From the IMG/VR virus record IMGVR_UViG_3300036817_000261, positions 10,106-74,105 of that record: a DNA stretch of 64,000 bases; one strand, written 5' to 3'. Positions 3,271 through 38,073 of this stretch are shown here, piece by piece. The notes under the pieces were generated by a model. It did not search any database. It saw only the letters and a program-made list of their open reading frames with translations, and had not been told where the DNA came from. Numbering within the stretch: the first letter of the stretch is position 1; each line of letters opens with the position of its first letter. The translations under genes were made by a program, and so were the position numbers. This DNA is from a virus.

Positions 3271-3299
3271 AGCCTAAGGCTGTTCCGTTGATTTGTCAA
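3271..3299 (-). promoter_or_regulatory. sigma70-like promoter of the helicase gene (near-leaderless)
   Basis: TTGACA-N17-TAGGCT, 8 nt before ATG 3262; spacer resembles the other promoter copies. Confidence 0.6.
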
Positions 3300-9960: not shown

Positions 9961-10002
9961 ATCCTCCGCTATTCCACTTGATAAATCAAGCGAATAATCA
10001 AG
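9961..10002 (-). promoter_or_regulatory. repeated early promoter (leaderless)
   Basis: CTTGA-N8-TTGATT-N17-GAGGAT, 6 nt before ATG 9954. Confidence 0.5.
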
Positions 10003-11809: not shown

Positions 11810-11854
11810 GAGAGTCTCGGCTATTTATTTTGATATGTCAAATGCTTTTTCAAG
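11810..11854 (-). promoter_or_regulatory. repeated early promoter
   Basis: CTTGAAAAAGCATTTGACA-N17-GAGACTCTC; near-identical copy at 14293-14337. Confidence 0.7.
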
Positions 11855-14292: not shown

Positions 14293-14337
14293 GAGAGTCT
14301 CGGTCATGCGTTTTGAATTGTCAAATGCTATTTCAAG
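14293..14337 (-). promoter_or_regulatory. repeated early promoter
   Basis: CTTGAAATAGCATTTGACA-N17-GAGACTCTC. Confidence 0.7.
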
Positions 14338-14876: not shown

Positions 14877-15335
14877 TCACCATTTCTGTCCGAAATAGAC
14901 GCGCAAAACTTGGTCGATACAGAGATCTGGATTGATCCGGCGCTGCCAGTGATGTTCCCAGGTGATAGTGCCAGCGATGGCTGCAACACTGGTAGGGCAA
15001 TCAACGACGCCTTCGAACCAGCCGACTACGAGGCCATAGCCGGTGATAGGATGCTCGCCATTGACGCTAGCGACCTTGAATTGTGGATAGACGAACGGCT
15101 CCCTGATGAGCGCGCACTCGTCCACATAGATAGCAACGCGGACGCCGCGCAGTGCGCCGCCAAACATGAGCTGCTGGACAAGGTCACAATCTAGAAGGTT
15201 GTGAATGTAGCGCTGGTCGGCCCAGTTCACGATCAGTGGCACAAGCTCGCATTTAAAGGGATCGATCACGATGGCCCTCACCAACTTGACATCCGGCGGC
15301 GGAGCTGGTTCTCTTTTGTGGGTACAGGAAAGCAT
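14877..15335 (-). CDS. DUF3846-like hypothetical protein
   Basis: RAIVIDPF...IYVDE...ITGYGLVVG; true start may be GTG 15281. Confidence 0.55.
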   Translation of the reverse strand: MLSCTHKREPAPPPDVKLVRAIVIDPFKCELVPLIVNWADQRYIHNLLDCDLVQQLMFGGALRGVRVAIYVDECALIREPFVYPQFKVASVNGEHPITGYGLVVGWFEGVVDCPTSVAAIAGTITWEHHWQRRINPDLCIDQVLRVYFGQKW

Positions 15336-15918
15336 GCCCGAACCTACTGACAACGACCCAGTTTTGCACGCACTAAATGCGGCCAAGGAGCGGCAGCGTG
15401 GAGTCATTGTTCCTATGCGCCTGCCTCCAGCCTCCACGTTGGCCCCAGATGCGCCAGCGCCTCACTTAGGTGATCTTATAGCGGAGATGGGCCCGCAACG
15501 CGTCCTAGACGCTCTCAAGGCCTGGGATATGCGCCTTGGCGGCAGGCCGATCAATGAGGTTGCGCACGAGTTCAATCTTTCGATTGAGGGAGCAAAGATC
15601 TTAATCAAGGAGGCGCATGAAGCAATCAAGGAAGACCTTAAAGAGTCGATTGAGCAAAACAGGAGCTTGGATCTGGCACGAATTGATGGGCTTTTACAGA
15701 CATGGTATCCCGCAGCCAAAGCGGGCGACGACAAAGCGGCGACGATTACCTTAAAATGTATTGAGCGCCGGGCCAAGCTCACCGGCACAGAGCCAGATGA
15801 GAGAGTGGACCGCACCCAGCCACGCAACGTGCTCGTATGGGTCCAGCAGCAGCTGCCCAGCATCAATAAGATTGTCGACAGCCTGCCGGTTGAATTAGCG
15901 CCAGGAGCACCGTCATGA
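15334..15918 (+). CDS. HTH protein, putative terminase small subunit
   Basis: AWDMRLGGRPINEVAHEFNLS HTH, then LDLARIDGL...WYPAAKAGDDKAA...IERRAKLTG. Confidence 0.6.
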   Translation: MPEPTDNDPVLHALNAAKERQRGVIVPMRLPPASTLAPDAPAPHLGDLIAEMGPQRVLDALKAWDMRLGGRPINEVAHEFNLSIEGAKILIKEAHEAIKEDLKESIEQNRSLDLARIDGLLQTWYPAAKAGDDKAATITLKCIERRAKLTGTEPDERVDRTQPRNVLVWVQQQLPSINKIVDSLPVELAPGAPS

Positions 15919-16175
15919 TCACAACGGACACGAGCAAGCGCAGCAGCAACATCAAGCAAGTGAGTTATGATGCTGCTAATCAGGCTTTAGAGATCACCTT
16001 CAAATCTGGTGGCCGATACCGGTTTCACAATGTGAGCCCGCTGGATCACCAGAAGTTTTTAGACAGCAAGAGTTTGGGCAAGCATTTTAACCAGGAGTAC
16101 TGGGGCAATAAACGGCACCCATCCCAAAAGCTCGAGGCCACTGACAACGAGAAGAGCGGGCCGCCGCCTAAATGA
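15915..16175 (+). CDS. KTSC domain protein
   Basis: SSNIKQVSYD...LEITFKSGGRYRFHNV...SKSLGKHFN. Confidence 0.85.
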   Translation: MITTDTSKRSSNIKQVSYDAANQALEITFKSGGRYRFHNVSPLDHQKFLDSKSLGKHFNQEYWGNKRHPSQKLEATDNEKSGPPPK

Positions 16176-16985: not shown

Positions 16986-17262
16986 AGAGTTCAGCCTGAC
17001 ACCAAGCCAGCGCGAGGATTTAACCCAGGTGATCATCCGGGTGATTCCGCCCGAGCTGCAAGATGACTGGAGCAAGCTTGGCGACTTTGAGCTTTTAATG
17101 ACGGGGCTGATGGCCGCGTACGAAGATGGGCTGTCGCCGGAGCAGACGATGGAATGGCTCAGAGATCAACTAGGCATCAGCAGAGAAGCAGCGATGTGCG
17201 CATTAGGCACATTGGCGGTGAACGCGATAGAGGTGCAGCAGAAGATGATTCAGCGAAATTAG
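16975..17262 (+). CDS. hypothetical protein
   Basis: Coupled ORF. Confidence 0.5.
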   Translation: MTAEEFSLTPSQREDLTQVIIRVIPPELQDDWSKLGDFELLMTGLMAAYEDGLSPEQTMEWLRDQLGISREAAMCALGTLAVNAIEVQQKMIQRN

Positions 17263-17430
17263 AGGCGAGCCAGGGAGGATTCGAACCGCCATCTTAGGGC
17301 TTCCGCCCAACCATTTTAACCAGGGTTGCCGGTCGGAGGATTCGAGGCGTTTCATGATGTGATCAGCACCACTTGCCGCTCCGAGCTGCGCAGTCTCCCC
17401 CGTCTTGGCCACCACTTAAACTACTGGCTC
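17263..17430 (-). ncRNA. tRNA-like RNA with a 92-nt D-loop insertion and non-canonical anticodon arm
   Basis: GAGCCAG/CTGGCTC acceptor stem, TA-GTTT-AAGTGGT D arm, GGTTCGAATCC T arm, own upstream promoter. Confidence 0.65.
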
Positions 17431-17437
17431 GAGGAAG

Positions 17438-17465
17438 ATTCTCGCAGATCCAAATCATTTGTCAA
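17438..17465 (-). promoter_or_regulatory. promoter of the tRNA-like RNA
   Basis: TTGACA-N16-GAGAAT with extended TG, 7 nt before the acceptor stem. Confidence 0.55.
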
Positions 17466-17478
17466 TTAGATAATCAAA

Positions 17479-17721
17479 ATGACGCTGATTAACGTTTACT
17501 GGACGCCTCGGATCAACATGCTAGTTGTGCTCTGCGACTGCGGGGAGATCCTGCACCGGCCTAGCAACTATTCGATGGTGCAATGCCCAGTGTGCCGGAG
17601 GGCGCAGTTATGGCATGACGGAGACCCCAAGCCAAAGAAAGGCCGTTGGAGTCAGCCGGTAATGACCAACATGGTATTGACTCGAGACTTCGATCCGGTT
17701 AAAGCCGAGGCAGCGAAATGA
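17479..17721 (+). CDS. small Zn-ribbon protein
   Basis: CDCG...CPVC. Confidence 0.5.
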   Translation: MTLINVYWTPRINMLVVLCDCGEILHRPSNYSMVQCPVCRRAQLWHDGDPKPKKGRWSQPVMTNMVLTRDFDPVKAEAAK

Positions 17722-36255: not shown

Positions 36256-38073
36256 TTGCCAATGGATTTGGTGCAGTTTCGTCGCGACTGCGGTGAAGGG
36301 ACCGATGAAGAGTTAGTTAAAGCAGTCTATCAGGTCGACGCCACTGTCCAGAGCCCGGACCAAGCCAAGAGCTGGATCTGGGCTCTGATTAAGCGGCTCC
36401 TAGAAACTGAGCGCTACGGTGCCGCCGGAATGATTCTTTGGGGTGGGGCCCTCTTTAATTACGGGCCTGGGGCCGTCAGACAGCTGATCCAAAAAGTTCG
36501 CACCACCCAGAATTTGATCGTTCTGGGTGGTGCTGCTTTAGGGAAAACCTACACGCTCATTTGCTACCTTTTACTGGACTGGATCCGTGACCCAGAATAC
36601 ACCGAAATCAAAATCATCTCGACGACCGGCGGGCATGCGAAGAGTCAGAGTTTCTCGACGCTGCAACGTCTTTACCAAAACGCGATCGTCCCACTTCCGG
36701 GGCTGGCCATGGATATGTTTGTCGGCCTTAACCCTAAGGACAGACACTCCGCGATCACCCTCGTGGCAATCCCACAGGGCGAAGATGGTAAAGGTGTTCT
36801 CCAAGGTTTTCACCCAGTCCCCAGAAGCCGCGTTCATCCGACCTTCGGAGCTATGTCGCGCATCCGGGCGCTTCTGGACGAGGCGGAGGAAATTCCTTCA
36901 GGCGTATGGGAAGGCGTGGCAAATCTTCTCGCGAGTGCCTGGGGCGCTGAAGCAGTCAAGGTCTGCTGTGCTACCAACCCGCGAGACGTCACGAGCAAGC
37001 TCGCGCAACTGGCGGAGCCACCACAGGGCTGGACGCAGGTCGACCTCGACAAGGATAAGGAATGGTACTCGAGCGAAAGGTGGAACGTACTACGACTCGA
37101 TGGGGCTGATTGCGAAAACGTCCAAGAACGGCAGTTAGTTTTCCCCGGCTTCCTCACCTGGGACGGTTATCAGACCTATGCTCTGGAGCTAGGCGGCCAG
37201 TCGCCCCGCTACCTGACTTTCGGGCGCGGCATGTATCCGCTCTCGGCCTTCCAGAACACGCTGATTCCCTACTCGCTCTTAGAGCCGGTTATCGGCCAAT
37301 TCCTTTTCGATGGGCGCACGGTGGGAGCCGCCGGGATCGATCTGGCGAGCGAAGGTGGGGACCGGATTATTCTGGTAGTCGGCAAATACGGGCGAGCGGT
37401 CGGGTTCACTCCTTTGCGCGGCGTTCCCATCATGTTTAAGAAGCCGCGTTACGTGGTCCAGATCGATCAGTACTATGAAATGCCAAAGGAGAAAACGATA
37501 GCACTTGCTACCAGCCTGGAAGTTAGGTGCAAAGGTCTCAATATCCATCCTGACTGGATCACGGTCGACCGCACCGGAGTCGGGACCGGTGTTCACGATG
37601 CCATGTGCGAACAGTGGAGCGGCACTATCCGGGGAATTATGTGGGGTGCTGAATCGGGCGCGCGCAAGCTCCTGGCTGATGACCACGATTTCTCGGTTGA
37701 GATCTATGACGGGATCACGACCGAGATGCATATGCGGGTGCGCAAGTATCTCGAGTTTGGCCTCATGTGTATCCATCCCCAGGTGCAGACCACCCAGCTA
37801 TTCAAGGAACTCTCCAGCCGCCGCTTCCAGCCTTCCGGCAAAGGCCCATCGGGCAAACCGCGCATTCGTCTTGAGCCCAAGAAAGAGTTTAAAAAGCGGC
37901 TGGGCTGGTCGCCGGACATCGGCGACGGGTTAGTGCAGTTAGTTCATGGCTGCGCGTTAAACGGCCCGGAGAAGGCCTCTATGATTGGAAACAAACGCCC
38001 GGCGCTTTTGCCGGATTCCAACATCGGCCCGCGCGAACGCACGGCTTACATCGACTTCAGTCAGGATCTCTAG
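36256..38073 (+). CDS. terL: terminase large subunit
   Basis: Walker A GGAALGKT, Walker B LLDEAEE, ATNP coupling motif, RNase H-like GIDLA / DRTGVG / SPDIGD. Confidence 0.88.
   Translation: MPMDLVQFRRDCGEGTDEELVKAVYQVDATVQSPDQAKSWIWALIKRLLETERYGAAGMILWGGALFNYGPGAVRQLIQKVRTTQNLIVLGGAALGKTYTLICYLLLDWIRDPEYTEIKIISTTGGHAKSQSFSTLQRLYQNAIVPLPGLAMDMFVGLNPKDRHSAITLVAIPQGEDGKGVLQGFHPVPRSRVHPTFGAMSRIRALLDEAEEIPSGVWEGVANLLASAWGAEAVKVCCATNPRDVTSKLAQLAEPPQGWTQVDLDKDKEWYSSERWNVLRLDGADCENVQERQLVFPGFLTWDGYQTYALELGGQSPRYLTFGRGMYPLSAFQNTLIPYSLLEPVIGQFLFDGRTVGAAGIDLASEGGDRIILVVGKYGRAVGFTPLRGVPIMFKKPRYVVQIDQYYEMPKEKTIALATSLEVRCKGLNIHPDWITVDRTGVGTGVHDAMCEQWSGTIRGIMWGAESGARKLLADDHDFSVEIYDGITTEMHMRVRKYLEFGLMCIHPQVQTTQLFKELSSRRFQPSGKGPSGKPRIRLEPKKEFKKRLGWSPDIGDGLVQLVHGCALNGPEKASMIGNKRPALLPDSNIGPRERTAYIDFSQDL

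Follow-up and report, generated by a model that had tools for sequence, protein, structure and literature searches.

A candidate lysine-tRNA-derived RNA gene with a replaceable central module in uncultured soil phages

Does a stretch of phage DNA that resembles a tRNA gene enlarged by a folded block, and that has no ordinary anticodon loop, encode a working RNA, and if so, of what kind? The question is raised by a locus in IMG/VR virus record IMGVR_UViG_3300036817_000261, a 74-kb record that is rated complete and derives from soil metagenomes. We analysed its bases 10106-74105, a stretch of 64,000 nucleotides (nt) that we call the window and within which all positions are numbered. The candidate gene lies on the minus strand at 17266-17430 and would specify an RNA of ~165 nt, running from G1 to the discriminator base G17266. 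A preliminary description, made from the letters alone, had read it as a promoter-driven mimic of a tRNA with a folded insert in the D loop and a tetraloop instead of an anticodon. We provide evidence for a selected RNA gene with a frame resembling lysine tRNA and a separately evolving central block, and we give about even credence to the fuller reading in which a small clade of uncultured soil phages carries here a functional gene, whose product, a non-decoding tRNA-like RNA, acts through its tRNA shape.

The tRNA elements that had been described are all present in the minus-strand sequence. Seven Watson-Crick pairs without a flaw join the 5' strand of the acceptor stem, GAGCCAG (17424-17430), to its 3' strand, CTGGCTC (17267-17273), and the stem forms with a pair probability of ~1.0 in the thermodynamic ensemble. 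The following segment (17411-17423) comprises U8 and A9, a D-stem 5' strand GTTT (17418-17421) and the 5' half of a D loop, AAGTGGT (17411-17417), which holds the equivalents of G18 and G19; it is aligned to a D arm by a covariance model of lysine tRNAs, and by ARAGORN after the deletion described below, and shows no listed difference in any variant seen. Next comes a central structured block of 92 nt (17319-17410) with copies of TGGT at both edges (17411-17414 and 17319-17322). Beyond it, TA and AAAT (17313-17318) would supply the end of the D loop and the 3' strand of the D stem if the block is a D-loop insert. The hairpin GGGC-GGAA-GCCC (17297-17308) occupies the position of the anticodon arm, and the T arm, GGCGG-TTCGAAT-CCTCC (17274-17290), has a canonical loop and one C.U mismatch in its stem, a feature absent from the preliminary description. 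The RNA ends in G-CCT, with a CCT trailer and no encoded CCA.

In its intact form the sequence is silent to standard tools. ARAGORN at default settings called 0 genes in the window, and Rfam, searched at gathering thresholds and at E values up to 10, gave no match, the tRNA model included. Removal of 17319-17410 yields, as had been proposed, a cloverleaf: ARAGORN calls a 75-nt tRNA at default stringency, as tRNA-Phe(GAA), in which GTTT and AAAT make a 4-bp D stem closing a 9-nt loop with A14, G18, G19 and A21. When 6269 internal deletions were scanned with ARAGORN, 139 gave a call, mostly removals from RNA positions ~14-22 to 105-116, and a second set of deletions (to about 96-103) gave a class-II-like call.

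The letters of the frame point to a particular ancestor. A 21-mer running from the T loop to the 3' end of the acceptor stem occurs in only seven of ~185,000 species genomes; all seven are bacterial, and every match lies in a genuine tRNA-Lys(UUU/CUU) gene. From G52 onward the T arm is letter-identical to these genes, and the 5' acceptor strand is one base off theirs (GGGCCAG). Additionally, a covariance model trained on nine genuine tRNA-Lys genes matched one of two sister copies of the RNA (contig L002) from end to end in a local-end alignment (36.8 bits, E ~1e-8), and gave a shorter reading of 18 bits on the window. Thus, in three independent tests (the deletion cloverleaf, the 21-mer identity and the covariance-model match) the likeness to tRNA goes beyond chance, and from these comparisons of letters we conclude that the frame appears to descend from a bacterial lysine tRNA. 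The D arm joined by removal of the block, AAGTGGTTAAAATGG, is found unbroken as the D arm of genuine tRNA-Tyr genes (L012:2974-3057 and L013:1829-1912). The contigs that carry those genes are from jumbo phages (167 and 255 kb) and have 13 and 23 tRNA genes in the stretches fetched. No prophage copies of the RNA appeared in a scan of the genome collection with the T-arm/acceptor word.

Other ways of finding a tRNA here were tried and set aside. A relaxed ARAGORN call on the intact RNA, tRNA-Leu(taa) with an 85-nt intron, was rejected; it relies on a stem strand, GGCCA, from which a G is missing in the two sister copies. An inner cloverleaf of 70 nt (17334-17265), which scores 18-21 bits with the tRNA-Lys model, has an imperfect 5' acceptor strand that is altered in diverged variants. 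A pairing of UUAAAA with the anticodon loop of tRNA-Lys was dropped, these bases being the D arm in the better-supported model. The preliminary description had also likened the block to a tRNA nested in a tRNA, on the strength of second copies of the D-loop and T-loop words. Both are there, AAGTGGT(G) at 17367-17374 and TCGAATCCTCC at 17335-17345, and an 11-nt direct repeat arises in 11 of 5000 shuffles (0.2%). They may be of no importance; diverged relatives have lost the T-loop copy.

Is the element maintained by selection? Scans of IMG/VR gave two sister contigs as its only relatives (L002, and L003, which is the same contig as L015), a further candidate, L004, being dropped as a chance match inside coding DNA. 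Both sisters carry the RNA at the same place, beside a divergent gene for an 80-aa Cys4 protein. Across the three phage contigs the RNA is 97.6-98.8% identical (2-4 differences per 164 nt), whereas the adjoining protein gene is 82-91% identical, with 70-79% identity (21-30% differing) at its third codon positions, and the 60 nt downstream of the RNA are about 48% identical. The stretch of conservation runs from G1 to the 3' strand of the acceptor stem, and the promoter is also kept. Eight sequencing runs, all of soil DNA, are listed for the locus. In independent assemblies from four further soil runs, contigs with several different flanks lose alignment to it at 17261-17267 and 17430-17433. 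Because the RNA is more conserved than its neighbour, the edges of the conserved block fall at the acceptor ends and the soil contigs break at the same ends, we conclude that this is, by all signs of sequence comparison, a functional gene under strong purifying selection, and not the decayed pseudogene that had been named as its alternative.

The same data bear on the view that there is no RNA function at all, and that the locus could be a tRNA-Lys gene in decay, the remnant of an attachment site or a cis-acting element of a plus-strand mRNA. Identity of the 3' part to tRNA-Lys genes, as in tRNA-targeting attachment sites, would fit such an origin, as would the T-stem mismatch and the unremarkable z-score of the fold. 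However, 2-4 differences per 164 nt stand against 21-30% at the third codon positions of the neighbour, and the conserved block takes in the 5' acceptor strand and the promoter. Profile searches of the complete genome found no integrase (tyrosine recombinase) or serine recombinase, and the canonical T-loop and D-loop words read properly on the minus strand only. We consider an absence of RNA function very improbable.

Conservation is not even along the RNA. A constant frame, RNA positions 1-21 and about 105-165, shows no listed differences in the soil contigs. In two diverged soil contigs every listed difference falls inside 17327-17403, and in two others 17330-17409 is replaced by 85 unalignable letters, so that the fast-evolving core of the block spans ~17327-17409. 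We conclude that the central block is, as its pattern of change indicates, a module of its own, which evolves fast and can be replaced. Evidence from the diverged variants is provisional, because their sequences had to be reconstructed from a table of differences in which some changes are missing. In these variants the pairs that can close the block, between GCCA (17406-17409) and TGGT (17319-17322), can still form, as can several inner helices. The earlier proposal of an inserted block holds as to a separable module, but its position in the D loop is not established, and both the tRNA-Lys model and the thermodynamic ensemble prefer a block that replaces the anticodon loop.

Whether the RNA could decode turns on the anticodon arm, for which a tetraloop, with no 7-nt loop and no U33, had been described. 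The arm is a hairpin with a GNRA-type cap, and U33 is indeed absent. The lack of a 7-nt loop depends on the pairing register, since ARAGORN offers an alternative in which a 5-bp stem, TTGGG/CCTAA, closes the 7-nt loop CGGAAGC, and this sole possible 7-nt loop has G33. One soil contig, reconstructed from the difference table, has a loop of 6 nt (CTACAA) between the same stem strands. Additionally, the discriminator base, a G in the window, reads A in the two sister contigs, and such a difference among near-identical copies argues against a conserved aminoacylation identity. Because the intact sequence is invisible to tRNA finders, the only 7-nt loop has G33, the loop length differs in one relative and the discriminator varies, we conclude that the RNA, judged by these features, does not read codons in the normal way, under either of the topologies weighed below. 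The idea of a free-standing, non-decoding tRNA-like RNA has thus held up.

These observations also weigh on the possibility that the locus is an interrupted tRNA gene, in which excision of the ~92-nt block, as a hitherto undescribed type of intron, would leave a tRNA of 73-75 nt, perhaps charged and used, for example one whose loop CGGAAGC presents the anticodon GAA. Once the block is deleted, a cloverleaf of normal tRNA size appears, which ARAGORN assigns to tRNA-Phe(GAA); the block has conserved ends and a variable interior, as introns do, and the TGGT repeat stands at both junctions. Nevertheless, Rfam gave no match to group I introns (Intron_gpI), other introns or ribozymes at E values up to 10; the block does not lie in the anticodon loop, and its 92 nt are far below the length of group I introns in bacterial tRNA genes, which have ~200 nt or more and a P1-P9 core. 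Inspection by eye of the TGGT junctions did not reveal the bulge-helix-bulge motif of archaeal introns, a 4-bp helix between 3-nt bulges, and the sigma-70-type promoter and bacterial-type T loop argue for a bacterial host. The phage has no RtcB or RNA ligase in the profile searches, a spliced product would keep G33 against a near-universal U33, and the discriminator and, in one relative, the loop length vary. An intron is therefore, on these points, improbable.

Where, then, does the block leave the frame? The topology is partly resolved. Most likely, the block branches off from the D loop directly after U20, with GCCA/UGGU as its closing pairs and a D stem GUUU/AAAU that spans it. The division between constant and variable positions follows the lines of this model, the joined D arm is that of real tRNA-Tyr genes, and ARAGORN recognises the cloverleaf left by deletion. 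A fold constrained to the cloverleaf also lies only ~4 kcal/mol above the minimum (-52.5 versus -56.4).

A different arrangement has a local D arm, GUUU/AGAC (AGAC at 17402-17405), with an 11-12-nt loop, and a short anticodon-like stem, GGGG/CCCU, on which a multi-hairpin domain of ~97 nt takes the position of the anticodon loop. On this view we would have a tRNA mimic with a replaced anticodon and no D-loop insert. It is in this way that the tRNA-Lys model aligns the L002 copy at 36.8 bits. The local D arm is found in the minimum-free-energy fold of the window copy, with a probability of 0.6 there, and both changes to AGAC in diverged variants (to AGGT) keep pairing, through wobbles only. However, the 3' strand of the local D stem and the GGGG strand fall inside the fast-evolving, replaceable block, and 17311-17326, which only the D-loop-insert model needs, shows almost no listed change, like the frame. 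The change G17399C breaks the GGGG/CCCU stem and no compensating change is seen, the probability of the local D arm is only ~0.05 in L002 and L003, and removal of the block yields a default ARAGORN cloverleaf. We place the D-loop model ahead and treat replacement of the anticodon loop as possible but doubtful.

Within the block, a well-predicted element is an apical hairpin (17354-17372), GTGGTG/CATCAT, whose 7-nt loop CTGATCA holds the palindrome TGATCA. Its pair probabilities are 0.6-0.99, and no variant has a listed change in it except at the outermost pair. In a flanking helix (17377-17384 with 17342-17349), the change C17346U in L003 turns an A.C mismatch into an A-U pair. In the rebuilt variants a two-sided change converts G.U to C-G at 17399/17337; this change also fits the helix UCGGAG/CUCCGA of the preliminary description, so the inner fold is only partly resolved. 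Covariation among homologues had been suggested as a check, and pairable two-sided changes do occur, but they cannot separate the competing inner helices.

Several of the folding results weigh against the D-loop model and, more broadly, against a conserved tRNA-shaped RNA. The evidence from covariation is thin, with only three real sequences that are nearly identical. The fold of the full-length RNA is no more stable than that of shuffled sequence (z = 0.41). By nearest-neighbour folding alone the T stem has a probability of <0.1 in the thermodynamic ensemble, and that of the block-spanning D stem (GUUU/AAAU) is ~0 in the intact RNA. The tRNA-Lys model, as noted, favours the rival arrangement, in which the D arm forms locally and the block stands where the anticodon loop should be. 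Finally, the making of the RNA, its processing and its binding of a partner rest on inference from sequence.

How the RNA would be made can be predicted in some detail. The promoter that had been noted upstream (17438-17465, minus strand) was confirmed by a consensus scan, with 10 of 12 matches and a TG upstream of the -10: a -35 TTGACA (17460-17465) is followed, after a 16-nt spacer, by a TG-extended -10 GAGAAT (17438-17443), and G1 of the RNA lies 8 nt after the -10. Both elements are kept in the two sister contigs while the surrounding bases vary. The phage has five similar promoters on its minus strand, this one included (3271-3299, 9961-9989, 11813-11841, 14296-14324 and 17438-17465), which share the layout TTGACA/TTGATT-N17-xAGxxT, with GAGxxT at four sites and TAGGCT at one. 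Three of the five end 6-7 nt upstream of a ATGCAAGC start, which suggests that early phage mRNAs with these promoters may be leaderless. By the same spacing, transcription of the RNA gene is predicted to begin at or beside G1.

Putting these elements together, host RNA polymerase would transcribe the RNA, probably early in infection, and host tRNA enzymes would remove the 3' trailer, perhaps with addition of CCA. The central block would be retained, most likely as an extra arm that leaves the D loop at the elbow and is closed by GCCA/UGGU. The half made up of the acceptor stem, T arm and elbow may then serve as mimic or decoy for a host protein that recognises tRNAs, for example one that acts in processing, modification or defence. 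Alternatively, the frame may stabilise the variable block and offer it a docking platform, and the block would be the working part in an arms race.

This last idea can be sharpened into a natural tRNA scaffold, a fixed lysine-tRNA chassis that is stabilised by the host's tRNA machinery and displays a swappable module of ~85 nt from its elbow. The module would bind or block a host factor, for example a tRNA-directed defence protein, and would diversify in an arms race. We offer this version tentatively, as rather less probable than the general reading of a non-decoding RNA that acts through its shape. If true, it would make this RNA one instance of a wider, undescribed class of anticodon-less phage tRNA mimics.

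A variable block on a constant frame, in an RNA that sits among early genes, would also suit a base-pairing small RNA (sRNA), in which the frame serves processing and stability and the block pairs with phage or host mRNA. The phage genome, the only genome searched for this, holds no conserved antisense target: the longest complementarity is 13 nt (16083-16095, plus strand, against RNA positions 107-119), which is at chance level, and the sister contigs, in the stretches retrieved, lack the site. Moreover, what stays unchanged in the block is folded into a closed hairpin, whose loop is palindromic. We regard an sRNA of this type as unlikely. The reading that we prefer remains that of an RNA acting through its tRNA-like shape.

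The genome around the locus offers few clues to a partner. Profile searches of the complete 74-kb genome found no integrase, serine recombinase, reverse transcriptase, Ro60, RtcB, RNA ligase or peptidyl-tRNA hydrolase, and ARAGORN at default settings found 0 ordinary tRNA genes in it. Because the genome lacks these enzymes and ordinary tRNA genes, the rival roles would be without partners. Searches of ~40 other phage proteins with PHROGs and Pfam gave no tRNA- or RNA-processing partner. A 215-aa protein encoded 1.3 kb from the RNA gene (15271-15918, plus strand) matches PHROG 645, 'Rnase E', with an E value of 1e-15; it has no Pfam family match, and any role in RNA processing is putative.

The constant neighbour of the RNA is the divergent gene for the 80-aa, zinc-ribbon-like Cys4 protein (17479-17721, plus strand; also L014:3001-3240 and L015:3001-3219). 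The protein has the pattern CDCG...CPxC, and in the window and both sister contigs its gene is the divergent neighbour of the RNA gene. Homologues are 65-95% identical, and more distant ones are encoded on contigs of 10 kb and 4.4 kb. It has no significant Pfam match, an atlas search gave only unnamed small zinc-binding clusters, and its AlphaFold model is poor (pLDDT 63) and gave no significant match in a fold search. In L003/L015, ~360 bp of extra DNA lie between this gene and the RNA gene (L015:2660-3000), and one soil contig has a similar addition of 354 letters, which makes the site look like a small indel hotspot.

The phage itself appears to belong to a very divergent lineage, because none of its ten large plus-strand proteins (413-826 aa; 36256-63319, presumed to be the structural region) has a Pfam match and one of them, of 605 aa (36256-38073), has no tblastn match among 50,697 cultured-phage records. 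Its identifiable phage genes include a helicase, a RecT-like protein and a tail-collar fibre. The RNA locus gave no blastn match to cultured-phage records, and scans of metagenome collections with words from the RNA gave none either. The range of the RNA, as now seen, is limited to a few uncultured soil phages.

How does such an RNA compare with known ones? We found no published RNA family that fits it. With canonical tRNA (RF00005), and tRNA-Lys in particular, it shares the 7-bp acceptor stem with free ends, U8, a D loop with A14, G18 and G19, and the T loop TTCGAAT, in addition to the letter identity of its T arm and 3' acceptor strand and the near identity of its 5' strand; like many bacterial tRNA genes, it encodes no CCA. 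It differs from a canonical tRNA of ~75 nt in its 165 nt, in being missed by ARAGORN and Rfam and in its extra folded block of ~85 nt. In contrast to the usual 7-nt loop with U33 and a purine at 37, it has a GGAA tetraloop or CGGAAGC with G33, and it also differs in the C.U pair of its T stem and its variable discriminator. As for transfer-messenger RNA (tmRNA), ARAGORN and Rfam gave no match, and pair 3-70 is G-C and not the G3.U70 of alanine identity.

We infer, by analogy, that the RNA works most like tRNA mimics of the YrlA type. YrlA (RF02553) is a non-decoding RNA, found also in phages, that mimics the D arm, T arm and acceptor stem of tRNA and has been proposed to bind proteins; that of M. 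smegmatis is cleaved by RNase P and receives CCA (PMC4201824). Its order is permuted, with a T arm, a closed acceptor stem-loop and a D arm, and its ends form the stem that binds Ro60 (PMC4201824). In contrast, the phage RNA keeps the normal tRNA order (acceptor 5' strand, D, T, acceptor 3' strand) and free acceptor ends. No direct link to YrlA was found, as the complete genome has no match to PF05731 (Ro60/TROVE) and the RNA none in Rfam.

Phages offer two further comparisons. RNAC and RNAD of phage T4 have tRNA-like ends. They are small stable RNAs linked to tRNA genes, with roles that are unknown (PMC3014915), whereas the RNA described here is a lone gene with its own promoter, in a phage that lacks tRNA genes and at a locus with no blastn match in cultured-phage records. 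Phage tRNAs also neutralise defences that target tRNA, as T5 tRNA-Lys does against PARIS/AriB (PMC11464382, PMC12409363, PMC10264068). Bacterial defence nucleases repeatedly target tRNA-Lys, and the contacts of AriB are with the D loop and anticodon stem (PMC11464382, PMC12409363). Like the T5-type tRNAs, our candidate is a phage-borne derivative of lysine tRNA, but those tRNAs decode and replace the cleaved host tRNA, which an RNA with this anticodon arm presumably cannot do. Therefore only the role of a decoy or inhibitor would be open to it against such defences, a link that we treat as a lead.

A parallel in design is an artificial one. Ponchon and Dardel reportedly engineered a 'tRNA scaffold' for the expression of structured RNAs. 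In it the cargo occupies the anticodon arm, and the constant frame is recognised by host processing enzymes. The phage RNA likewise has a constant tRNA frame that carries a structured RNA; it differs in being natural and in probably holding its variable block in the D loop.

Set beside these systems, the RNA is, as far as its sequence can tell, a new variant among tRNA mimics, a conserved phage gene with a modular extra domain. Phage tRNA genes are today seen, in part, as a means of countering bacterial defences that cleave or modify tRNAs. A strongly selected tRNA frame that does not decode and carries a fast-changing domain would suggest a further role for the tRNA shape, be it as decoy, inhibitor or carrier of a functional RNA module. 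If it is expressed and has a partner, this RNA would join Y RNAs and tmRNA as a new kind of non-coding RNA in phages, and would be a natural precedent for tRNA-scaffold designs.

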